A DNA stretch of 64,000 bases from Burkholderiales bacterium (GCA_035651315.1 DASRFY010000211.1:148-64147); one strand, 5' to 3'; counted from the first letter of the stretch, positions 2,475-29,556 are shown. Notes: generated by a model not told the origin, from the sequence alone. Made by a program: numbers and translations.

Positions 2475-3257
2475 CTATTGTGCCACCCAGCCGCCGTCGA
2501 TCGGCAGCGCGGCGCCGGTGATCGAGGCCCCGGCCTCGCCGGTCAGGAATACCGCCAGCGCGGCCACCTCCTCGATCTTCACGAATTCCTTCGACGGCTG
2601 GCGCTCGAGAATCACCTTCCTGATCACCTCCTCGCGCGGGATGCCGTGCACTTTCGCCTGGTCTTCGATCTGCTTGTCGACAAGCGGCGTGTGCACGTAG
2701 CCGGGGCAGATCGCATTGCAGGTGACGCCGGTGCCCGCGACTTCCAGCGCCACCGTTTTCGTGAGCCCGACCATGCCGTGCTTGGCCGCGATGTAGGCGG
2801 ACTTGAACGGCGAGGCGACCAGGCCGTGGATGGAGGCGATGTTGACGATGCGGCCGAAGCCGCGCCGCTTCATTCCCGGCAGCGCGGCCCGGATCGCATG
2901 AAACGACGACGACAGATTGACGGCGAGGATGTGGTCCCATTTCTCGATCGGGAACTCGTCCACCGGCGCGACGTGCTGGATGCCGGCGTTGTTCACCAGC
3001 ACGTCTACCTTGCCCAGCCGCGACTCGCAGTCCTCGACCATCGCGGCGATCTCGGCCGGCCGCGTCATGTCGGCCGGGTGGTAGAAAGCCTGCACCTTGA
3101 ACTGCGCTTGGATGGCGCCGCGCGCCTTGTCGATCTGCGCCGCATCGCCGAGGCCGTTGAGCGTCACGTCGCATCCCTGGGCTGCAAAGGCGCGCGCGAT
3201 GCCCAGACCGATGCCGCTGGTCGAGCCGGTGACGATGACCGATTTTCCTTTCAGCAT
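2475..3257 (-). CDS. bdhA: 3-hydroxybutyrate dehydrogenase (SDR family)
   Basis: Starts MLKGKSVIVTGSTSGIGLGIA (TGxxxGIG NAD motif). Has the catalytic YxxxK (SAYIAAKHG) and is close to full length versus BdhA proteins. ATG at 3255-3257. Confidence 0.85.
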   Translation of the reverse strand: MLKGKSVIVTGSTSGIGLGIARAFAAQGCDVTLNGLGDAAQIDKARGAIQAQFKVQAFYHPADMTRPAEIAAMVEDCESRLGKVDVLVNNAGIQHVAPVDEFPIEKWDHILAVNLSSSFHAIRAALPGMKRRGFGRIVNIASIHGLVASPFKSAYIAAKHGMVGLTKTVALEVAGTGVTCNAICPGYVHTPLVDKQIEDQAKVHGIPREEVIRKVILERQPSKEFVKIEEVAALAVFLTGEAGASITGAALPIDGGWVAQ

Positions 3258-3311: not shown

Positions 3312-4418
3312 CTACAGCGCCGGGCGAGCGAAGTAGCCGGTCAGCTCGAGATAGCCGAGCCCCGCGATGCGACCGTTTTCCAGCGCGCGCACCGCGCCTT
3401 CCCAGTACACGGTGCCAGTGCTGGCGCGGGCATCGAGCTCCTGGTCGTCCATCAACGGCTGCAGGAGGAATACCCGGTCGCCCGCGCGCAGCCGCATCGC
3501 GACCGGATACTGCGCATTCGTGCGCGGCGAGCGCCAGCGGCGCAAAGCCTCGAACGCGATGTTTCGGCTCGACAGCCGGCGCACCCGACCCGCGGGCTCG
3601 CGCAGCGTGCCGGCCGCCCACAGCGTGGCGCCGTCCCGCGCGCGAATGCGGAATGCCATCAACGCGCCGCCGTCGCTCAAGTTGACGCCGGTCCAGTCCC
3701 AGCCCGCCGCTTCTGGCGCAAGGTATTCGCTGGACCATTCGTGATCGAGCCATGCCTGCCCTGCGACGCGCAGCCGCCTACCTTCGATCTCGATCTGCCC
3801 GCTCACCGCGAGGTGCGGGCGGCTGTAGTAATAGCTCGCCTGCGCCGGCTTGCGCCCTTTCCGGCTGTAGCCGGCCTCGCCCTGCAGCAGGATCGGCTGC
3901 GTGGCCTCGAAGCGCAGATCGAGCGTGAATTCGCGCGCCGCGACGCGGGCGAGATAACGCTCGCCTTCGCGGCGCAGCCGCCAGTCGCCGATGCGCACGT
4001 CGGTGTCGTTCTCCCGCGCGTAGGCAAGGCCGAACCCCTCGCGCGCCGCGCGCTGATCGTGGCGCAGCCGGCCGGCGCGAGGATCGGCGATCGCCGCGTG
4101 CGCGAACAAGAGCTGCTTCGGGGCGAACGCAGACGGATTGTCTTCCTGCACGCCCGGCCGGCTGCGGAAGAACGTGACCTGGAAGCCGAACTCGCTTCCT
4201 CCTTCGTCCCGCAGCCAGCCGGTGACGTACCACCACTCGGTGCGAAAGGCGGAGTGCGCGCCGTCGTCGCGCGGAAATTCCAGCCGGTATCCCGGCCGCA
4301 CCTCGGGAAAGTCTGCGCCTTTTCCGGTCGAAGGCCAAAGAAAGGAGAAACACAACGCAAAGCCCGCAAAGGAGCGCAAAGGTCGCAAAGAAAGGCAAGA
4401 TTTTGGAATGAACGTCAA
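3312..4418 (-). CDS. Lipocalin-like / CrtC (hydroxyneurosporene synthase)-like, AttH-like protein
   Basis: Motif DDGAHSAFRTEWWYVTGWL is typical of the AttH/CrtC lipocalin-like family. The gene lies immediately downstream of FtsX-type ABC genes. The only in-frame start upstream of the signal-like region is TTG at 4418, so the start is uncertain. Confidence 0.7.
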   Translation of the reverse strand: MTFIPKSCLSLRPLRSFAGFALCFSFLWPSTGKGADFPEVRPGYRLEFPRDDGAHSAFRTEWWYVTGWLRDEGGSEFGFQVTFFRSRPGVQEDNPSAFAPKQLLFAHAAIADPRAGRLRHDQRAAREGFGLAYARENDTDVRIGDWRLRREGERYLARVAAREFTLDLRFEATQPILLQGEAGYSRKGRKPAQASYYYSRPHLAVSGQIEIEGRRLRVAGQAWLDHEWSSEYLAPEAAGWDWTGVNLSDGGALMAFRIRARDGATLWAAGTLREPAGRVRRLSSRNIAFEALRRWRSPRTNAQYPVAMRLRAGDRVFLLQPLMDDQELDARASTGTVYWEGAVRALENGRIAGLGYLELTGYFARPAL

Positions 4419-4570
4419 TGCAGCGGCCTGTTATTGCATCGGAGCGTCAACAGGTCAATGTTGTCAGGTATTGCCATCGGTACGCGGGTGACGCCCGGAA
4501 ACATCTCCGTTTTCCCTGTTTACCTTTGCGACCTTTGCGCTCCTTTGCGACCTCTGCGTCCTGCTTTTGT
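4351..4570. repeat. Element A: long inverted repeat built from tandem CGCAAAG heptamers
   Basis: Perfect 26-bp arms at 4365-4390 (cgcaaaggagcgcaaaggtcgcaaag) and 4524-4549 (exact reverse complement), with a 133-nt spacer. The left arm holds 4 CGCAAAG copies at 4356, 4365, 4375 and 4384. An imperfect 10-bp outer extension spans 4355-4364 / 4550-4559. Confidence 0.85.
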
Positions 4571-4594: not shown

Positions 4595-7096
4595 TTACCA
4601 ATCTTCCTTCACCGCCTGCACCGCTTCGTCCGACATCGCCTGGCGGCCGCTCAGCACCGCGGTGAGCACTGCGGCCGCGAGCAGCGCGGCGACGAACGCA
4701 GCCAGCGCGCCGAGCGGCCAGTGCATCTCCATGCTCCAGTGAAAGGATTGCCGGTTGACGACGTAGACCAGGATCACGCTGATCGTCGCGCCGAGGATCA
4801 GGCCGATGGCCGCCGCCATCGCCGCGACGACCAGGCCCTCCAGCACGAGCATCGCGCCGATCTGGGTCCGGCTCACGCCGAGATGCCGCAGCATGCCGAA
4901 CTCGCGCCGCCGTCCGAACGCGCGCACGGCGAAGTTCGCCGACAGCCCGGCCAGCGCGATCACCATCGCCGCGCCTTCGAGCGCGTAGGTTACGGCGAAG
5001 GTGCGGTCGAAGATCGCGAGCGAGCGCGCGCGGATCTCGCCCGGCTGCGCGATCTCGAGCCGGTCTCCGCCCTCGATCGACGCGCGTACCGCCTGCGCCA
5101 CGGCGGCCACGTCGGTGCCGGCGGCCAGCCACAGCCCGGCGTCGTTCGCGGTCGCATCGCCGGTCAGGCGCCGGTAGGTCGCGCGCGAGATCGCGAGCGC
5201 GCCGTTCTGCCTGGCGTAGTCGCGCCACACGCCCGCCACCGCGAAACGATGGGCGGCGCCGCCGAGCGGCAGGCTCACTACCTGACCGATCTTCCATCGG
5301 AACTCGTCCGCCACGTACTCGCTCACCCACACCGGCGGCGCGTCGGGCGGCAAGGCGCCGGCGCTCTTCACCAGCGGGATGGATCGGGCGGGATCGCTCT
5401 CGTCCAGATCACGCGCCAGCAGGGTCACCCGCGGCAGCGCGGGATCGAGCAGGATCTGCTGCACGCGCAGGAATTCCACCCGCCGCACGCCGGGCAGCGC
5501 GCGAATGCGCTCCTGGGTCTCGGGCGGCAGATAGGCGCTGTCGCCCTTCGGCGCGGCACGCAGATACAGATCCGCGGGCAGCACGCGGTCGAGCCAGCCC
5601 TCGAGCGAGACGCGAAAGGAGGCCACCATGATCGCCATCGCCACCGTGAGGCTCACCGCCGCGACCAGCGCCGCCAGACCGACGCTCACCTGTGCCGACG
5701 CAGCGCGCAACTGGGCGACGGCGAGCCGCCGCCACGGGCTGCGCCCCTCCGGCAACCATCGCGCCAGCACGGCGGTGAGGCGGGGCGTGAGCAGGATCGC
5801 GCCCAGCAGCAGCAGCGCGATCGCGAGATAACCGGACAGCGGCAGGCCTTCGACCGCCGGCAGCCAGGCCAGCGCCACGCCGAGCAGGACCAGCACCGCT
5901 CCCGGCCAGGGCGATTCCGCGCGCTCGAAGGCGTGCAGCTCGTCGCCGCTTTTCAATGCCTGCGCGGGCGGGATGCGCGCCGCATCGAGCGCCGGCGCGA
6001 GACTGCCCAGCACCGCGGCCGCCGTGCCGAGCAGGAGGAACAACGCGGTCGCCAGCGGGTCGATGGCCGCGCGCGCCCGCAGATCGCGGAAATACCCCGC
6101 GCCGAGGTCCGCGCCGAATGCATGCAGCATGGCCACAGCAAGCGCCGCGCCCGCGGCGATGCCCGCCGCCGCGCCGGCGCCGCCGACGATCGCGCCCTCG
6201 GCGACGAGCATCCGCAGCAAGGCGCCGCGCGTCACCCCGAGCACGCGCAACAGCGCGAGCTGGGCGCGGCGGCGCACCACCGAAAGCGCCTGCGCGGAGA
6301 ACACCAGCAGGCCGCCGGTGAACAATGCGACCAGCGCGAGCACGTCGAGGTTGACGCGATAGGCGCGGGTCAGCCGGGCGTTCGCCTCGAGAGCGGATTG
6401 CGGGCGCTGCACCGCCACGCCGGCGGGCAGCAGGCGCGATATTCCGGCAGCGAAGTCATCCGCGTCTATACCGGGACGCAGGCGCAGATCGACGCGCGTG
6501 ACCAGGCCTTGGCGCGCGAAGAGCCGCTGCGCGGCGGCGATGTCCATCAGCGCATAAGCCTGCGTTCCCGCGCCGCCGCCCAGAATGCCGGCAAACCGAA
6601 GCTTCGCCTCGCGCAGCCCCGCCTGGAGCGCGACGTGGTCGCCGAGCGCGAGGCGCAGCGCACGCGCCGCGGCGGGAGAGAGGTAGAGGGTGTCCGCGCG
6701 CAGCGTGTCGAGCGGGTCGTCTTGCGGCTCGCTCTCTCGGGCGATGAGCGCCGGCTGCACCCCGGCTGCGCGGAACACGTCGATGCCGATCACGCGCAAG
6801 GTTTCGTCGCGGCCGGCAAGACGCGCTTCGATCTCGAGCGCCGGGCTCGCCTCGCTCACCTCGGGCAACGCCGCGACCTGCGCGTAGAGGCGCTCGGAAA
6901 AACCGGCGCGCGGCCCGCGCAGGCTTAACTCGGCTTCGCCCGCCAGCGCCGCCTCGCCGCGCGCCATTTCCTCCATCGCGGCGCGGTTGATGATCTGCAC
7001 CGCGTAGCCGAGCGCCACGCCGAGCGCGATCGCGGCGGCGGACAGCGCACCTCGCGTCTTGCCGCGCCAGAGCATGCCGGCGACGTGGGCGATCAT
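4595..7096 (-). CDS. ABC transporter permease, FtsX/MacB-like (duplicated FtsX domains)
   Basis: The true start is MIAHVAGMLWRGKTRGALSAAAIALGVALG, with ATG at 7094-7096 overlapping the upstream stop (ATGA). About 833 aa with two FtsX-type 4-TM modules. The longer ORF 4595..7531 N-terminus is Arg-rich junk. Confidence 0.85.
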   Translation of the reverse strand: MIAHVAGMLWRGKTRGALSAAAIALGVALGYAVQIINRAAMEEMARGEAALAGEAELSLRGPRAGFSERLYAQVAALPEVSEASPALEIEARLAGRDETLRVIGIDVFRAAGVQPALIARESEPQDDPLDTLRADTLYLSPAAARALRLALGDHVALQAGLREAKLRFAGILGGGAGTQAYALMDIAAAQRLFARQGLVTRVDLRLRPGIDADDFAAGISRLLPAGVAVQRPQSALEANARLTRAYRVNLDVLALVALFTGGLLVFSAQALSVVRRRAQLALLRVLGVTRGALLRMLVAEGAIVGGAGAAAGIAAGAALAVAMLHAFGADLGAGYFRDLRARAAIDPLATALFLLLGTAAAVLGSLAPALDAARIPPAQALKSGDELHAFERAESPWPGAVLVLLGVALAWLPAVEGLPLSGYLAIALLLLGAILLTPRLTAVLARWLPEGRSPWRRLAVAQLRAASAQVSVGLAALVAAVSLTVAMAIMVASFRVSLEGWLDRVLPADLYLRAAPKGDSAYLPPETQERIRALPGVRRVEFLRVQQILLDPALPRVTLLARDLDESDPARSIPLVKSAGALPPDAPPVWVSEYVADEFRWKIGQVVSLPLGGAAHRFAVAGVWRDYARQNGALAISRATYRRLTGDATANDAGLWLAAGTDVAAVAQAVRASIEGGDRLEIAQPGEIRARSLAIFDRTFAVTYALEGAAMVIALAGLSANFAVRAFGRRREFGMLRHLGVSRTQIGAMLVLEGLVVAAMAAAIGLILGATISVILVYVVNRQSFHWSMEMHWPLGALAAFVAALLAAAVLTAVLSGRQAMSDEAVQAVKEDW

Positions 7097-9468: not shown

Positions 9469-11061
<1,593 letters not shown>

Positions 11062-11836: not shown

Positions 11837-12751
11837 ATGGGCGCGCGTGACCACAGGCCCGGCTCGAAAGCCCTCTCCTCGCCCGGAGCCGAGGACGCCG
11901 CGCTGCTGCGCACGCTCGGCGAGCGGGTGCGCGATGCGCGTTCGCGCCGCGGCCTGACGCGCAGGATGCTGGCGCGCGACTCCGGCGTGTCCGAGCGCTA
12001 CCTCGCCCAGCTCGAGTCCGGGCGCGGGAACGCCTCCATCCTGCTGCTGCGGCAGATCGGCGCGGCGGTCGGGCTTTCGCCGGCGGCCCTGTTGAGTCGG
12101 CCCGACGAAGAGCCCGCCGAACTGGGCTTCATCTACCAGTTCCTGCGCCGCCTGCCGCCGCAGCGGCTGGCGCGGGTGCGAGAGCAACTGCTGCGCGACT
12201 ATGGCAACGCGATGGCGGTTCGCGGCAAGCGCGTCGCGCTGGTCGGCCTGCGCGGCGCGGGCAAGTCCACGCTCGGCGCTGCGCTCGCCGCCGCGCTGCG
12301 CGTAGCGTTCATCGAGCTGGATCGCGAGATCGAACGCGAAGCGGCCACCAGCCTCGCGGAAATCTTCCTGCTCTACGGACAGCAGGGCTACCGCAGATAC
12401 GAGCGCCGCTGCCTGGAAAAGACGCTGGAGGCGCACGAGCGCTGCGTCATCGCCACCGGCGGCAGCATCGTCTCGGAGCCGTCCACCTACGACCTGCTGC
12501 GGTCCACCTGCTTCACCGTCTGGCTCAAGGCCTCGCCCGAGGAGCACATGGCGCGGGTGATTGCGCAGGGCGACACGCGCCCGATGGCCGGCAATGCGCA
12601 GGCGATGGACGACCTGCGACGGATCCTGGCCGGCCGCGCGCCGCTTTACGGGCAGGCGGACGCGACGGTCGAGACCGCCGGGCGCAGCGTGCGACAAAGC
12701 CTCGCGGCGCTCAAGCGCGCGATCCGGGCCCGGGAAGGAGGAGCACCATGA
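11837..12751 (+). CDS. boxR: BoxR/BzdR-type regulator (XRE HTH fused to a shikimate-kinase-like domain)
   Basis: N-terminal HTH (GLTRRMLARDSGVSERYLAQLESGRGN). The C-terminal P-loop GLRGAGKST with a shikimate-kinase-like fold is diagnostic of the BzdR/BoxR architecture. The stop overlaps the boxC start (ATGA). Confidence 0.85.
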   Translation: MGARDHRPGSKALSSPGAEDAALLRTLGERVRDARSRRGLTRRMLARDSGVSERYLAQLESGRGNASILLLRQIGAAVGLSPAALLSRPDEEPAELGFIYQFLRRLPPQRLARVREQLLRDYGNAMAVRGKRVALVGLRGAGKSTLGAALAAALRVAFIELDREIEREAATSLAEIFLLYGQQGYRRYERRCLEKTLEAHERCVIATGGSIVSEPSTYDLLRSTCFTVWLKASPEEHMARVIAQGDTRPMAGNAQAMDDLRRILAGRAPLYGQADATVETAGRSVRQSLAALKRAIRAREGGAP

Positions 12752-14433
12752 GCGCAGTCGCCCAGGGCGCGGCGCCGAAAGAGACGACGCCCGTCACGTT
12801 CGATACCCATCCGGACCGCTACGCGCACTGGCGGCTGTCGATCGACGAGCCGGTGGCGACGCTCGCGATGGACGTCGCCGAGGACAGGGGCCTGCAGCCG
12901 GGCTACCGGCTGAAGCTCAACTCCTACGACTTGGGCGTGGACATCGAGCTCAACGACGCGCTCAACCGCATCCGCTTCGAGCACCCGGCGGTGAAGTGCG
13001 TGGTCATCACCAGCGCAAAGGAGCGCATGTTCTGCTCCGGCGCCAACATCTACATGCTCGGCCAGTCCGGCCACGCGTGGAAAGTCAACTTCTGCAAGTT
13101 CACCAACGAGACCCGCAACGGCATGGAGGACTCCAGCCGCCACGAGGGCCTGAAGTTCCTGGCGGCGGTGAACGGCACGGTCGCCGGGGGAGGCTACGAG
13201 CTGGCGCTCGCCTGCGACGAGATCGCGATGATCGACGATCGCTCGTCCACGGTGAGCCTGCCGGAAGTGCCGCTGCTCGGCGTGCTGCCGGGAACGGGCG
13301 GCCTGACGCGGCTCCTCGACAAGAGGAAAGTCCGGCGCGATCTCGCCGATGTGTTTGCTTCCACGGCCGAAGGCGTGCGCGCCGATCGCGCGCAGCAGTG
13401 GAAGCTGGTGGATCATATCGCGCGCCCGCAGCAGTTCGCACAGGTCGTGAAGGAACGCGCCGCGGCGCTGTGCGCGCAAAGCACGCGAAGCGCAACAGGG
13501 CAAGGCGTATCGTTGCCACCGCTCGCGCGCACGATCGACGCGGAGGGCTTGCACTACCGCCACGTCGACGTGCGGATCGACCGCAAGGCGCGCAGCGCGA
13601 CGATCACGGTCCATGGGCCGGACGGCGCGCAGCCGGCAGACGCAGGCGAGATCCGGGAAGCCGGCGCGCAGTGGTGGCCGCTCGCCGTGGCGCGCGAGCT
13701 GGACGACGCGATCCTGATGTTACGCACCAACGAACTCGAGATCGGCCTCTGGCTTCTGAAGACCCTCGGCGACGTGCAGGCGGTACTCGCAACGGATGCC
13801 GTGCTGAAGGCGCAGCGCGACGACTGGTTCGTGCGCGAGACCGTAGGCTGGCTGCGGCGGGCGCTGGCGCGGCTGGATGTCAGCTCGCGTAGCCTGTTCG
13901 CGATCGTCGACCACGGTTCGTGCTTTGCCGGCACGCTCGCGGAGCTGGCGCTCGCTGCCGACCGCAGCTACATGCTGGCATCGCCGGAAGCGGAACCGGG
14001 CGCGCCCGAGATCGCGCTGTCGGAAATGAACTTCGGCGCCTACCCCATGGCGAACCGCTTGACGCGGCTGCAGACGCGCTTCTGCGGCGAAATCGCCGCC
14101 GCCCACGCGCTGCGCGCGCGGATCGGCCAGCCGCTGAAGGCTTCGCAGGCGCTCGCCCTCGGGCTGGTGACCTTCGCCCCCGACGACATCGACTGGGCGG
14201 AAGAGGTGCGCATCGCGGTGGAGGAACGCGCGAGCCTTTCGCCCGACGCGCTGACCGGCATGGAAGCCAACCTGCGCTTCGCCGGCTCGGAGACGATGGA
14301 GACGCGCATCTTCGGGCGTCTCTCGGCGTGGCAGAACTGGATCTTCGGCCGTCCGAATGCGGTCGGCGAGCACGGTGCATTGAAGGTTTACGGCTCCGGC
14401 GCCAAAGCCAAGTTCAGCTGGGAACGAGTGTGA
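12748..14433 (+). CDS. boxC: 2,3-epoxybenzoyl-CoA dihydrolase (benzoyl-CoA-dihydrodiol lyase)
   Basis: 561-aa crotonase-superfamily protein with BoxC-type length and N-terminal region (HPDRYAHWRL, LNSYDLGVDIELNDAL, FCSGANIYML). Confidence 0.9.
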   Translation: MSAVAQGAAPKETTPVTFDTHPDRYAHWRLSIDEPVATLAMDVAEDRGLQPGYRLKLNSYDLGVDIELNDALNRIRFEHPAVKCVVITSAKERMFCSGANIYMLGQSGHAWKVNFCKFTNETRNGMEDSSRHEGLKFLAAVNGTVAGGGYELALACDEIAMIDDRSSTVSLPEVPLLGVLPGTGGLTRLLDKRKVRRDLADVFASTAEGVRADRAQQWKLVDHIARPQQFAQVVKERAAALCAQSTRSATGQGVSLPPLARTIDAEGLHYRHVDVRIDRKARSATITVHGPDGAQPADAGEIREAGAQWWPLAVARELDDAILMLRTNELEIGLWLLKTLGDVQAVLATDAVLKAQRDDWFVRETVGWLRRALARLDVSSRSLFAIVDHGSCFAGTLAELALAADRSYMLASPEAEPGAPEIALSEMNFGAYPMANRLTRLQTRFCGEIAAAHALRARIGQPLKASQALALGLVTFAPDDIDWAEEVRIAVEERASLSPDALTGMEANLRFAGSETMETRIFGRLSAWQNWIFGRPNAVGEHGALKVYGSGAKAKFSWERV

Positions 14434-14448
14434 AAAGCGGAACATCAA

Positions 14449-14722
14449 CGCCTCAACGCAGTGGCGCAGAATCCAAATCCACTTCTCAACGCAGAGGCGC
14501 AGAGGACGCAGAGTTCGCAGAGGAAAATCGGGAATGAAATGTGTGGACAGCAGATCGTCGGACTTGAACATGGAGAAGCGCATTTGAGCACATCCGCGTC
14601 GACTGCCAATGCAAGACAAGGCCAATGCTTACACCCTATCTCTTCCACATAGCACGACTGTGGCTCCGGTATCGAGTTCTTTCTCTGCGAACTCTGCGTC
14701 CTCTGCGCCTCTGCGTTGAGAT
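14449..14722. repeat. Element B: long inverted repeat built from tandem CGCAGAG heptamers
   Basis: Perfect 38-bp arms at 14485-14522 (ctcaacgcagaggcgcagaggacgcagagttcgcagag) and 14683-14720, with a 160-nt spacer. CGCAGAG copies at 14490, 14498, 14507 and 14516. An unpaired partial copy of the arm start (ctcaacgcagtggcgcaga) lies at 14451-14469. Confidence 0.9.
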
Positions 14723-14743
14723 TTCGATGTTAGGAGTTAATTC

Positions 14744-16153
14744 GTGAGCATCAACTACAGCGAGCGGATTCCGAACAACGTCGACCTCGCGAACGACCGG
14801 GCGCTGCAGCGCGCGCTCGAGCACTGGCAGCCGAAGTTTCTCGACTGGTGGCGGGAAATGGGGCCGAACCGGTTCGCCTCAGACGAGGTGTACCTGCGCA
14901 CGGCGGTGGGCGTGGACGCGCAGGGTTGGGCGAGCTACGGCTTCGTGAAGATGCCGGACTATCGCTGGGGCATCTTTCTCGCCGATCCGACTCCGGATCG
15001 CACGATCGGTTTTGGCGATTACTTCGGACAGCCGGCCTGGCAGCAGGTGCCGGGCGAGCTGCGCTCGGCGTTCCGCCGCATCATCGTCACCCAGGGCGAC
15101 ACCGAACCCGCGTCGGTCGAGCAGCAGCACCTGCTCGGCCTCACCTGCCCCTCGCTGTACGACCTCAGGAACCTGTTCCAGGTGAACGTCGAGGAAGGGC
15201 GCCATCTGTGGGCGATGGTCTACCTGCTGCACGCCCATTTTGGGCGCGATGGGCGCGAAGAGGCGGAAGAGCTGCTGGCGCGCCACTCCGGGGACGCCGA
15301 CAAGCCGCGCATCCTCGGCACCTTCAACGAGCCGATCCGCGACTGGCTGTCTTTCTTCATGTTCACCTACTTCACCGACCGCGACGGCAAATTCCAGTTG
15401 AAAAGCCTCGCCGAGTCGGGGTTCGACCCGCTGGCGCGCACCTGCCGCTTCATGCTCACCGAGGAAGCGCACCACATGTTCGTCGGCGAGAGCGGGGTCG
15501 GGCGGGTGGTGAAGCGCACGCTGGAGGTGATGAGGGAGCTGGGCACCGACGATCCGGACGCGGTGCGAAGACAGGGAGCGATCGACCTGCCGACGATCCA
15601 GCGCTACCTGAATTTCTGGTACAGCTCCTCGCTGGACCTGTTCGGCTCGGAGGTGTCGTCGAACGCGGCATCCTCGTTCGCCAACGGCATCAAGGGGCGT
15701 CCCGACGAGACGCAATACGAAGACCATGATTGCGCCGATGCCAGCTTCGAGCTCGAGACGCCGCAAGGCAGGGAAGTCGTCGGCCTGCGCAACGCGATGA
15801 ACGAGGTGCTGCGCGAGGCCTACAGCAGGGACTGCGAGATCGGGGTCAGGCGCTGGAACATGCAGATCAGGCGCGCGGGGATCGATTTCGAGCTGAAGTT
15901 ACCGAGCTCGCGGTTCCGCCGCATGATCGGCGTCTGGGCCAATGCGACCGTCGATCCCGCCGGCAATGCGCTGGCGCGCGAAGAGTACGAGCGGCGCATT
16001 GCCGAGTGGATCCCGAGCGAGTCCGACCGCGCCTTCGTCCAAGGCTTGATGCAGCGCGTCGTCGAACCGGGGAAGGTGGCGAGCTGGATCGCCCCGCCGG
16101 AGCGCGGCATCAACAACCTGCCGGTGGATTACGAGTACGTGCGGCTCGACTGA
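14744..16153 (+). CDS. boxB: Benzoyl-CoA 2,3-epoxidase, oxygenase subunit B
   Basis: 469-aa diiron oxygenase with the typical BoxB N-terminus SINYSERIPNNVDL and EEGRH / EEAHH diiron ligand motifs. GTG start at 14744 with AGGAG 7 nt upstream. Confidence 0.9.
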   Translation: MSINYSERIPNNVDLANDRALQRALEHWQPKFLDWWREMGPNRFASDEVYLRTAVGVDAQGWASYGFVKMPDYRWGIFLADPTPDRTIGFGDYFGQPAWQQVPGELRSAFRRIIVTQGDTEPASVEQQHLLGLTCPSLYDLRNLFQVNVEEGRHLWAMVYLLHAHFGRDGREEAEELLARHSGDADKPRILGTFNEPIRDWLSFFMFTYFTDRDGKFQLKSLAESGFDPLARTCRFMLTEEAHHMFVGESGVGRVVKRTLEVMRELGTDDPDAVRRQGAIDLPTIQRYLNFWYSSSLDLFGSEVSSNAASSFANGIKGRPDETQYEDHDCADASFELETPQGREVVGLRNAMNEVLREAYSRDCEIGVRRWNMQIRRAGIDFELKLPSSRFRRMIGVWANATVDPAGNALAREEYERRIAEWIPSESDRAFVQGLMQRVVEPGKVASWIAPPERGINNLPVDYEYVRLD

Positions 16154-28100: not shown

Positions 28101-28309
28101 TCGATCGGCTGCGTGACCAGCGTCTCCACCAGTTCCGCGGAAAGCCCCGGAGCCTCGGTCTGGATCACGACCTGGCTGGGGGAAAACTCCGGGAACACGT
28201 CGAGGTTGGCGCGAAACAACGTGTACAGGCCGTAGGCGATCAGGGTCGCCGCGAGCGCGACAACTACGCCCGCGTAGCGGATGGAAAACCGGACGATCGC
28301 TGCGATCAT
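25184..28309 (-). CDS. Heavy-metal-efflux RND permease (CusA/CzcA family)
   Basis: 1041 aa. The N-terminus MIAAIVRFSIRYAGVVVALA and overall HME-RND conservation (LDVFPEFSPSQVVIQTEAPG) support the call. Confidence 0.9.
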   Translation of the reverse strand: MIAAIVRFSIRYAGVVVALAATLIAYGLYTLFRANLDVFPEFSPSQVVIQTEAPGLSAELVETLVTQPIESALGGVTGLESLRSQSIPGLSVVHVFFRDGSDTYRNRQVVNERLAVLAGQMPRGVAPPTMTPLTSSASTVLGVGITSKTRSLMELRTLTDWTIRPHLLAVPGVAEVNVFGGDVRQWQIQVDPERLRGYALSIEDVAAAARGAAGMAGTGFVKTPNQQIIVQTDAQPHAIGDVGRVILVYRAGQAVRISDVAEVTEGPAPSIGAAAIDGVPGVFMMVQGQLGANTHAVTQELERALEELGPLLEKEQVTLHAELFRPANFIETAVTNVRRDIVVGSVLVVLVLFLFLFNTRTAFICTLAIPVSLLTAVLVLDHFGVGLNVMVLGGLAIALGEVVDDAIIDTENIFRRLRLNRASAAPRPAQEVVLDASVEVRSSVVYATFIVALVFVPLLTLSGVAGKLFAPLGMAYIFAILASLLVAVTLTPALCYLLLARSELKSTDPPAVAWLKPRYLALLRRIERYPGRIVGAVFVVIAAGIGILPLFSGEFIPALREGHYIIHMTAVPGTSEAESLRIGRRVSEAILSVKGVKTVAQWVGRSKNGADTFGTHYSEFEVEIGSLGGAEQARILDEIRATLSGARGAGFPGVAFAVNTFLTERIEETISGYAAPLVVNLYGANLDALDRDALAVASSLSAVPGARDVQLQAPPGTPQLTVRLRPERVTALGLTPAAALAAVHAAYEGATVGQIYRGTQVIDLVVVLPPRIRDSIAQVGWLTMRNPDGRLVRLSDVADIEVTGGRYKVLHSGGRRIQTVTADVDGRDLQAFEQDASRQIAKQVRLSPGDYVVVSGTAAAQRQARTDLVAHSLLASVGIFLLLYLAFNSLHNLVITFLNLPFALIGGVIAVLGTGGWLSLGSLVGFVTLFGITLRNSIMLVSHYQYLVEAEGAPWGLETALRGAAERLPSILMTALVTGLGLLPLAVGSGEPGREIEGPMAIIIVGGLATSTILNLLVLPTVLLHFGRFQPRSGQARRSTA

Positions 28310-28318
28310 GAATAACGA

Positions 28319-28478
28319 TTAACCACAGAGACTCAAAGACACAGAGAAAATCCGGATTAACCACCAAGGCACCAAGGAAATCGTAAAAGTTGTTCCTGAG
28401 TTTCTTGGTGTCTTTTGTGCCTTAGTGGTGATATATCGCTTTGGAAGTTCTCTGTGCCTCTGTGTCTCTGTGGTTCTA
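28319..28478. repeat. Element C: nested inverted repeats built from CACAGAG and CACCAAGG tandem units
   Basis: Outer arms 28321-28348 / 28448-28475 match at 25/28 and share aaccacagagac and cacagagaa. Inner arms 28359-28380 / 28401-28430 (accaccaaggcac vs accactaaggcac) are imperfect. The central loop is about 20 nt. Confidence 0.85.
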
Positions 28479-28488
28479 TGGTTGGTAT

Positions 28489-29556
28489 TCAGTCTTCATT
28501 CTCGTTTCTGATCTGGAACTTGAGTTCCTCGGACAGCAGCAGCTGCGCGCCGCTCACCACCACCTCGTCGCCTTCTTTCAGCTCGCCGCCTGCGTCGAAC
28601 CAGCCCCCGGCCAGCTCGCGCGAGGCGGAAATCGAATAGCGCGCGAAGATGTCGTCGTCCGCGCGCACGTACACCCACGGTTTGCCCGCGTGCCAGACCA
28701 CCGCCTCGCTGGGAACGATGACGCCGCGACGCTTGCCCGATCCGGTCCCGACCCGCGCCGCCACGCGCGACCCTACCCGCAGATCGGCGCCGTCGACCAG
28801 GTAAAAGAAGGTCTGCCCGGGCAGCGCGCCTTCTACCTGCGGCGCGTCGGAGACGAAACGGGCCGGCCGCGGTTTTGCCGCGCCGATCACCGGCGCGACC
28901 GAAAACTGCGAGCGGACGACCGTGCGGGGCAGGCCGTACGGAAAGGCGAGCTGGACCAGATGCGCTTCGCGCCGGAGCAGTCGCTGCAGGACCGCGGACT
29001 CGGGTCTGCTCGCCCAGCCCGCGATCGTCGGGCCCCAGGCGGTGCGCAACGTGTCGTATTGCGCCTCCACGTTCGCCTGCGCCGCGGCGGCCTGCGCGGT
29101 CTCGGCGCGATAGCGCGCTTCGGCATTGCGCAGCGCCTGCTCCGACGCGTTGCGCTCGTCGCGATACAGCGCCTGCGTGCGGCGATACTCGGCCTCCGCC
29201 GCCGCCGCGGTGGCGCGCCGCGCCCCCGCCTCGGCCGCCGCGGCCAGATACCGGCCGCGCGCCTCGAGCAGGGGCTGGATGTTGACCACGGTACCGTAGA
29301 CCTCGGTGACGTCGGCGGTTTCCGCGGCGGCGAGCGGCCGCGTGGCGATGCCGCTCGCCTTCTGGCTCTGCACAGACACGCGCACCACAGCCCGCCCGCC
29401 CTCGCTGCCGGCGCCGGAAGGCGTCTCGATGCTCGCCTGGCGCGAACCGGCCGCGGGCCGGATTTCGTCGCGCGCGAAAAACACGAGCGCCCAGGACAGC
29501 GCGGCGATGACAAGTGCCATTGCCGCGATCAGGATCTGCGTCGCGTTCGGCCTCAT
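28489..29556 (-). CDS. Efflux RND periplasmic adaptor (MFP) with N-terminal membrane anchor
   Basis: 355 aa starting MRPNATQILIAAMALVIAALSWALVFF. The ATG at 29554-29556 overlaps the OMP stop (ATGA). Has an Ala-rich coiled-coil hairpin and a C-terminal beta-barrel region. ORF 28489..30762 is a fused over-extension. Confidence 0.8.
   Translation of the reverse strand: MRPNATQILIAAMALVIAALSWALVFFARDEIRPAAGSRQASIETPSGAGSEGGRAVVRVSVQSQKASGIATRPLAAAETADVTEVYGTVVNIQPLLEARGRYLAAAAEAGARRATAAAAEAEYRRTQALYRDERNASEQALRNAEARYRAETAQAAAAQANVEAQYDTLRTAWGPTIAGWASRPESAVLQRLLRREAHLVQLAFPYGLPRTVVRSQFSVAPVIGAAKPRPARFVSDAPQVEGALPGQTFFYLVDGADLRVGSRVAARVGTGSGKRRGVIVPSEAVVWHAGKPWVYVRADDDIFARYSISASRELAGGWFDAGGELKEGDEVVVSGAQLLLSEELKFQIRNENED

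Follow-up and report, generated by a model that had tools for sequence, protein, structure and literature searches.

A gene-less heptamer-array hairpin between boxC and boxB of a Burkholderiales bacterium and its relation to a widespread hairpin family

A long perfect hairpin, here called Element B, lies between boxC and boxB in the analysed stretch of 64,000 nucleotides (the window), and on sequence grounds it is a gene-less copy of a generic family of heptamer-array hairpins and not a box-specific structure. The original prediction had treated the hairpin as a feature of the box operon; this framing was not supported, as the same design occurs three times in the window and also in many phyla and in phages. 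The explanation that we favor, with a probability of roughly 70%, is that a gene-less hairpin of mobile type was acquired at the boxC–boxB spot and has drifted since. In our view the main interest of Element B lies in the family that it reveals and not in a role in benzoate metabolism.

The two arms of Element B, at 14484–14522 (plus strand, four CGCAGAG units) and at 14683–14721 (plus strand, four CTCTGCG units), are exact reverse complements of 39 bp. A perfect repeat of 38 bp (14485–14522 and 14683–14720) with a 160-nt spacer had been predicted; both statements were exact, and the match goes one base further. When mismatches were allowed, the inverted repeat extended to 49 nt at 92% (14477–14525 and 14680–14728). 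The unit starts are 8, 9 and 9 nt apart, and the order CGCAGAG...CTCTGCG places the purine-type array at the 5′ side and the pyrimidine-type array at the 3′ side. A 29-nt piece of the arm was found in the window only at the two arms, and it had no match in 100 shuffles. The loop of 160 nt (14523–14682, plus strand) has a G+C content of 50%, compared with 67% in the whole window, and contains no conserved ORF; an Rfam scan of 13500–15500 (E ≤ 1), which includes the loop, gave no match. Folded as RNA, the boxC–boxB spacer reached −133.9 kcal/mol (z = −7.7), and folded as DNA −67.5 kcal/mol (z = −8.7).

Outside the left arm, the ancestral outer left end with a diverged partial arm (CTCAACGCAGTGGCGCAGA, 14441–14476, plus strand) forms the first copy of a tandem duplication of about 33 nt. 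The original prediction had described an extra left copy without a partner on the right. The copy is real, since 14444–14470 is an 85% identical direct repeat of 14477–14503, while the lack of a partner did not stand: 14441–14470 is 83% complementary to 14702–14731, which covers the outer part of the right arm and its flank, and pairing is possible there. The outer right flank itself (ATTTCGATGT, 14722–14731, plus strand) is complementary to the outer left end. At the outer edge, CTTCTCAA stands before CGCAGAG and resembles the AAACGCAGAG variant of L134, L177, L190 and L193, lacking the C. A second assembly of the same organism (L121, GCA_037024535.1) starts inside the loop, its position 1 being position 14606 of the window; its four-unit right arm is identical, and it therefore confirms the right half of the element only and not the perfect left arm. 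The break at this place indicates that such hairpins may break short-read assemblies.

The gene before the hairpin, boxC (12748–14433, plus strand, 561 aa), was recognised from the ORF list, from Pfam matches to ECH_1/ECH_2 of the enoyl-CoA hydratase family and from the gene order kept in related loci. The gene behind it, boxB (14744–16153, plus strand, 469 aa), has homologues named benzoyl-CoA 2,3-epoxidase subunit BoxB. The gap of 310 nt (14434–14743) and a separate AGGAG for boxB, both given earlier, were reproduced. Element B is located after the boxC stop and before this Shine-Dalgarno sequence (14732–14736), which together with the GTG start at 14744 (14732–14746, plus strand) lies just outside the hairpin; the GTG aligns with an ATG start in the related cluster L122. 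Scans for promoter-like and terminator-like sites in the gap (terminators over 14300–14850) found none, so that read-through from boxC to boxB is likely, and the stem is probably transcribed as part of the boxC–boxB mRNA. The sequence after the stem is ATTTCGATGTTAGGAG, which has no T-run. To regard the 39-bp stem as a processing or stability determinant of this transcript would be reasonable, and cleavage of the boxCB transcript by RNase III at Element B is plausible because of the parallel with the intervening sequence (IVS) in Coxiella 23S rRNA. A reading of Element B as a BoxR binding site was considered and set aside.

Through an inverted-repeat scan of the whole window, we found that three elements of one design, A, B and C, rank at the top. 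A strict search revealed five arrays of at least three CRCNRAG units, compared with 0.055 expected from shuffles. Element A (4348–4566, without strand assignment) consists of arms with four CGCAAAG units (4348–4390 and 4524–4566) and a 133-nt loop, and its two neighbours are minus-strand genes, one for a MacB/FtsX-like permease (stop at 4595) and the other CrtC-like. Element C (28321–28475, without strand assignment) has CACAGAG arms (28321–28353 and 28443–28475) and a nested inner repeat CACCAAGG; the genes on either side, again both on the minus strand, encode an RND adaptor (stop at 28489) and an AcrB-family protein (start at 28309). Each of the three elements is located between two co-directional genes, and Elements A and C each sit in a transporter operon.

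We defined the family by two inverted arrays, each of at least three CRCNRAG units, with unit starts 8–13 nt apart. The arms are arrays of 3–4 units about 9 nt apart, with the purine-type array 5′ on both strands. Element B has both the arrays and the purine-5′/pyrimidine-3′ order, and it also has the placement of the family: between co-directional genes, upstream of a ribosome-binding site, and absent in a relative (L123). The pattern CGCARAG-N(1-3)-CGCARAG-N(1-3)-CGCARAG was searched in a collection of species-representative genomes, which yielded at least 120 loci; the hosts among the matches listed included Chloroflexota, Acidobacteriota, Bacteroidota, Planctomycetota, cyanobacteria and several classes of Pseudomonadota. 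Among the matches listed, a partner arm in purine-then-pyrimidine order was present for 87 of 157 arm matches, a partner in reverse order for 9, and no clear partner for 61. The loops of the matches listed ranged from 3 to about 1200 nt and were mostly shorter than 130 nt; judged by loop length, the gene-less form is the majority of these arm-selected loci. The same pattern was also found in viral contigs, with many matches among those listed. Through literature searches on the unit sequence, GxxExxY, PF13366 and heptamer hairpins, we found no description of the family, except for the heptamers of the Coxiella IVS.

Four related clusters with the gene order kept (L122, L123, L124 and L125) were compared with the window, and a family hairpin was found at the boxC–boxB spot in four of these five Burkholderiales box clusters. 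L122, with BoxB 89% identical and a spacer of 266 nt, contains the orthologue of Element B: flanks and arms are near-identical, the same outer pairing is present over 43 nt, and the loop, which is 70% identical over its first 98 nt, is overall less conserved than the arms. The spacer of L124 (164 nt) contains a CGCAAAG hairpin whose loop measures 52 nt and whose right end is duplicated over 16 nt. That of L125 (411 nt) contains a CGCAGAG/CGCGGAG hairpin inside a tandem duplication of about 209 nt, which includes the 3′ end of boxC. In L123 the spacer is only 63 nt and has no hairpin; a head-to-tail run of a different heptamer (GCTCGTCACTCGTCACTTGTCACTC) was observed in it (9938–10000), which may be what is left of one arm or an unrelated sequence. 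Units and loops at this site differ even between genomes with 94% identical BoxB, and the elements around the spot are, as far as these alignments indicate, unstable in detail. As the spacers of the relatives are mostly filled by hairpins, the spot is one that has been occupied repeatedly or persistently in the clade. The expectation of short spacers in other box clusters was thus right for one of the four (L123, 63 nt) and wrong for the other three, where 164, 266 and 411 nt are each filled by a family hairpin. Long spacers of unrelated sequence in most clusters had been named in advance as evidence against a specific role; long spacers were indeed found in three of four, but they hold family hairpins with other units or loops, and the outcome thus falls cleanly on neither side.

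In the alignment with L122, 33 nt are inserted in the window as a duplicate of the outer left end, by which the predicted extra copy is the ancestral end, and the right arm of the window contains an additional unit of 9 nt. Between the units, the window has G, GA and TT on both arms; L122 has G, GC and GT on the left and G and GT on the right. Since the two arms of the window agree in these spacers with each other but not with L122, at least one copying event from arm to arm is indicated after the two lineages had split. It is known that template switching can turn near-palindromes into perfect ones. Tandem duplications at the hairpins were observed in three lineages (about 209 nt at 9536–9957 of L125, 16 nt at 9951–9982 of L124 and 33 nt at 14444–14509 of the window), which suggests replication slippage or template switching at palindromes.

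In several loci of the family, the arms enclose an ORF of about 125 aa, and these ORFs match NCBIfam TIGR04256 “GxxExxY protein” (E = 1e-44) and Pfam PF13366 (PDDEXK_3). In an alignment of seven GxxExxY sequences, E27, D67, E77 and K79 were invariant, which are residues expected of a PD-(D/E)XK active site. PDDEXK_3 was listed with unknown function and many transfers in a superfamily survey of 2012 (PMC3424549), and we found no literature that links GxxExxY or PF13366 to a DNA element. PDDEXK_3/GxxExxY is a very large family; a protein search for GxxExxY returned at least 8000 candidates. Sequence search against solved structures gave no match, the predicted structure reached a pLDDT of only 51 from a shallow alignment, and PADLOC and PHROGs gave only weak Cas4-like matches.

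For a test in the reverse direction, 80 loci were chosen from metagenome contigs by GxxExxY protein motifs alone, and the 300 nt upstream of the ORF were compared with the 300 nt downstream, which could be done for 77 loci. The flanks were inverted-repeat (score ≥36) in 40 of the 77. In nearly all of these 40, units such as CGCAGAG, CGCAAAG, CACAGAG or CACGGAG form the array of the upstream arm, which stops 0–45 nt short of the ORF. Array density was 3.44 per kb within 150 nt of the ORF ends versus 0.07 per kb at more than 400 nt. The commonest units in these wrappers are CGCAGAG (100), CACAGAG (95) and CGCAAAG (58), which are the units of Elements B, C and A, respectively. Units most often start 9 nt apart, so that both the unit of Element B and its 9-nt period are the commonest among GxxExxY wrappers. 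The consensus of their outer edge is T-T-T-N-A-C. The dominant unit was common to 21 of 23 protein pairs with at least 75% identity versus 5 of 114 pairs with less than 50% identity; as unit sharing tracks protein identity, arms and gene evolve together as a single cassette.

Between the two arms of the wrappers, 93% of unit positions are complementary, and 59% of the positions in the spacers between units. Positions 1, 3, 6 and 7 of the unit reach at least 97%, position 4 only 72%. Among the transition mismatches in the wrappers, read relative to the ORF strand, G:U-compatible pairs were not favoured over A:C pairs (106 vs 92, p = 0.36). With paired units, poorly paired spacers and no G:U bias, the conserved feature looks like an inverted motif at the DNA level and not like an RNA stem, and the conserved arrays suggest recognition by a protein.

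GxxExxY was the only recurrent cargo between the arms, making up 27 of 36 candidate wrapped ORFs; three of the other nine have no overlap with a GxxExxY ORF. The loop of Element B contains no GxxExxY/PDDEXK_3 gene, for which reason we file it as the gene-less form, and six-frame translation with profile search of this loop revealed no remnant (E > 0.9). When the loops of Elements A, B and C and of the relatives' hairpins were compared by blastn and by an unfiltered profile search, only those of orthologues were related, and again no GxxExxY remnant was found. The gene was also absent from the window, from 78 kb of related box loci and, among the viral matches listed, from the hairpin-carrying loci (at least 120 loci, 1.07 Mb), so that the nuclease is not always nearby. 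None of the 40 cassette loci lies inside an rRNA gene. We also looked in the fetched loci for S23p cargo by an NIAEG-type motif, which we take to mark the four-helix-bundle S23p; five motif matches were found, none of them S23p by eye.

Related viral contigs of 75–90% identity differ by one hairpin of about 150–260 nt, as seen in L247 vs L323, L264 and L317 vs L229, and L317 vs L296. In every filled/empty pair the hairpin follows the stop codon of one gene and precedes the ribosome-binding site of the gene behind it, and in the four comparisons no target-site duplication or defined terminus was seen. Hairpins were also found in two spacers of the neighbouring ABC-transporter operon in L124 and L125, and in one orthologous spacer of this operon the two hairpins differ completely in units and loops. 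By these alignments, members of the hairpin family are shown to have been gained or lost between related genomes. The viral contig L208 (10.8 kb) contains five hairpins between co-directional genes (1003–1085, 2085–2322, 2772–3051, 6187–6265 and 9477–9556); small ORFs other than GxxExxY lie inside two of the five, and in phages the wrapper may thus carry different cargo.

The closest published parallel to Element B is the IVS in the 23S rRNA of Coxiella burnetii, which has a 28-bp terminal stem and 3–4 tandem heptamers (GACAGAT) just upstream of a small ORF; strains differ in how many heptamers they have, RNase III, which cleaves at the first repeat, excises the element from the transcript, and the authors regard it as selfish (PMC4990558). 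Both elements have a terminal-repeat stem with tandem heptamers, in Element B a stem of 39 bp with four heptamers per arm. However, Element B is located in an mRNA spacer between protein genes and not in helix 25 or 45 of 23S rRNA, the gene carried within the family encodes a PD-(D/E)XK-type protein instead of the four-helix-bundle S23p, and the unit sequence differs. Gene-less IVSs of about 100 nt exist in other bacteria.

Correia elements of Neisseria (CREE/NEMIS) are likewise small inverted-repeat elements scattered between genes and co-transcribed with them. Their terminal repeat is fixed (26 bp), their core is conserved, the TA target is duplicated, and to our knowledge they are confined to Neisseria; the heptamer-array family, in contrast, is built of unit arrays around unrelated loops, gave no sign of a target duplication and spans a very broad set of hosts. 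According to one study (PMC2649163), Correia elements bind RNase III, are cleaved or protected, and alter neighbouring expression. The family also resembles REP, BIME and REPIN sequences in being abundant extragenic palindromes, often between cistrons, of which inverted pairs form long hairpins. REP/BIME sequences can stabilise upstream mRNA, and REPINs are moved by RAYT transposases. REPs are single imperfect palindromes of 20–40 nt with a GTAG-type head and are species-specific. We rejected a REP/REPIN reading, as the arms of Element B are direct arrays of a non-palindromic heptamer; moreover, the gene linked to the family encodes a PD-(D/E)XK-type protein and not an HUH transposase. Phages have two comparable kinds of hairpin between cistrons. 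The RNase III processing hairpins between early genes of T7 are fixed genome parts and not insertions. The promoter-stem-loop cassettes (PeSL) of T4-type phages border small accessory ORFs and are exchanged from one genome to another. The hairpins of L208 appear to shuffle likewise, but neither T7 hairpins nor PeSL have heptamer arrays or any sequence relation to the family. Our verdict is that Element B belongs with IVS-like or MITE-like palindromic elements.

Considering these results, the following course of events might be proposed. In its full form, the hairpin wraps the GxxExxY (PDDEXK_3) nuclease gene of about 125 aa, and arms and gene travel as one cassette. Hairpins that lack the gene are far more numerous; in operons of bacteria and phages they stand between two cistrons, close before the ribosome-binding site of the second. 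One such hairpin would have entered the gap that follows the boxC stop and precedes the boxB ribosome-binding site in an ancestor of this Burkholderiales lineage, presumably as a mobile or selfish insertion, after which the arms were kept and the loop drifted. In the lineage of the window, the arms would recently have been made perfect when one arm was copied from the other, probably by template switching at the near-palindrome, and the same event may have left the partial extra left copy. Once co-transcribed, the 39-bp stem would form double-stranded RNA that RNase III might cut as in rRNA intervening sequences, and such a cut would physically separate the boxC and boxB cistrons. As the mover of the hairpins, the leading candidate would be the GxxExxY nuclease acting in trans.

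Several results count against parts of this explanation. The case for a nuclease acting in trans is weakened by the absence of its gene from the window, the related loci and the viral loci listed, and the hairpins may spread or persist without it. As the loops of Elements A, B and C and of the relatives' hairpins are free of any GxxExxY trace, a gene-carrying cassette is only a conjectural ancestor of Element B. The filled/empty pairs, having neither target-site duplication nor defined terminus, speak against a mobile insertion, and the weak pairing of the spacers beside the units, with no G:U bias in the mismatches, speaks against a role as an RNA stem. The spot is occupied in two lineages, so the hairpin could also be useful there, and the perfect left arm is without confirmation in L121.

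We weighed this acquisition of a generic hairpin against four other explanations. Element B could be a dedicated regulatory RNA structure of the box operon, evolved or kept there because it sets the BoxB/BoxC ratio through processing, pausing or stabilising of the transcript. The presence of a hairpin in four of five clusters from two lineages, arms conserved over a drifting loop between the window and L122, the fold energy, and a stem that is probably transcribed with no internal promoter would all agree with it. However, the same design is present in two unrelated operons of the window, in the ABC-transporter spacers of the relatives, in many phyla and in phages; the units and loops at the box site change even where BoxB is 94% identical; L123 manages with 63 nt and no hairpin; no Rfam family matches; and the mismatches of the wider family have no RNA-strand bias. 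We consider a dedicated regulator unlikely. An intrinsic terminator or attenuator between boxC and boxB would fit a very stable stem directly after the boxC stop codon, but the scan of 14300–14850 was negative and no T-run follows, a 160-nt loop on a 39-bp stem is unlike intrinsic terminators, and boxB would be left with no promoter; this we regard as extremely improbable.

The other two alternatives concern the origin of the sequence itself. A classical MITE would account for terminal inverted repeats, small size, intergenic position, several copies per genome and presence/absence polymorphism. Yet the copies have only arm units in common while their loops are unrelated, the four filled/empty comparisons of family members gave no target-site duplication, the arms are arrays of short, copy-variable units and not a fixed terminus, and the only recurrent cargo is a 125-aa PD-(D/E)XK-type protein and not a transposase, which makes a classical MITE quite unlikely. 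Palindromes are prone to assembly errors, and the second assembly breaks inside the loop with the left arm uncovered; the perfect symmetry and the partial left duplication could thus be artefacts, the true sequence being an imperfect hairpin like that of L122. Since the four-unit right arm is identical in L121, the orthologue is independently present at the same site in L122, and L124 has a comparable end duplication, we hold an artefact to be very unlikely. Acquisition of a gene-less family hairpin followed by drift is therefore the explanation that we retain.

For the box pathway, the long boxC–boxB spacer in this clade would then be a resident hairpin of selfish type and not a purpose-built regulator, and any uncoupling of BoxB from BoxC would be a side effect of it. 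That GxxExxY genes are regularly wrapped in inverted arrays of 7-base units gives a hypothesis for what the protein recognises, and the long-unexplained rRNA intervening sequences would be tied to a wider class. The family would also be one frequent reason why metagenome-assembled genomes contain spurious short ORFs and assembly breaks. We might further speculate, tentatively and with more doubt than belief, that the hairpins and the GxxExxY nuclease form an unrecognised class of mobile cassettes of bacteria and phages, with the rRNA IVS as a special case and Element B as a non-autonomous member. Such cassettes would insert between cistrons upstream of ribosome-binding sites, the hairpin would let the transcript be cut around the cassette, and the gene-less copies would be recognised through their CRCNRAG units by a nuclease encoded elsewhere.

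Some of the fetched loci had further features. In L002 (1185–1500), the loop of a CGCARAG hairpin holds another repeat, the translation of which reads like SPLVGEGQGEG/LSPALSHQGRGS motifs, presumably those that occur as spurious ORFs in numerous genomes of proteobacteria; palindromic elements may thus be nested in one another. In L016 (5767–6063), a CGCARAG hairpin is located within an outer inverted repeat of a different short motif (CCAACA/GGAACATCCAATGTCCAAG), forming a layered, onion-like palindrome that resembles Element C. The hairpin at about 5260–5350 of L058 lies inside a reading frame of 534 aa and is translated in frame (...RRDAENAEEAQRERANLRETSAELCASAVS...), and may be a tolerated insertion within a gene. 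Two related metagenome contigs, L134 (982–1267) and L152 (983–1270), contained strong Rfam matches to the 5′ ureB sRNA (108–118 bits) about 230 nt upstream of the GxxExxY cassette, which probably mark an adjoining urease gene.
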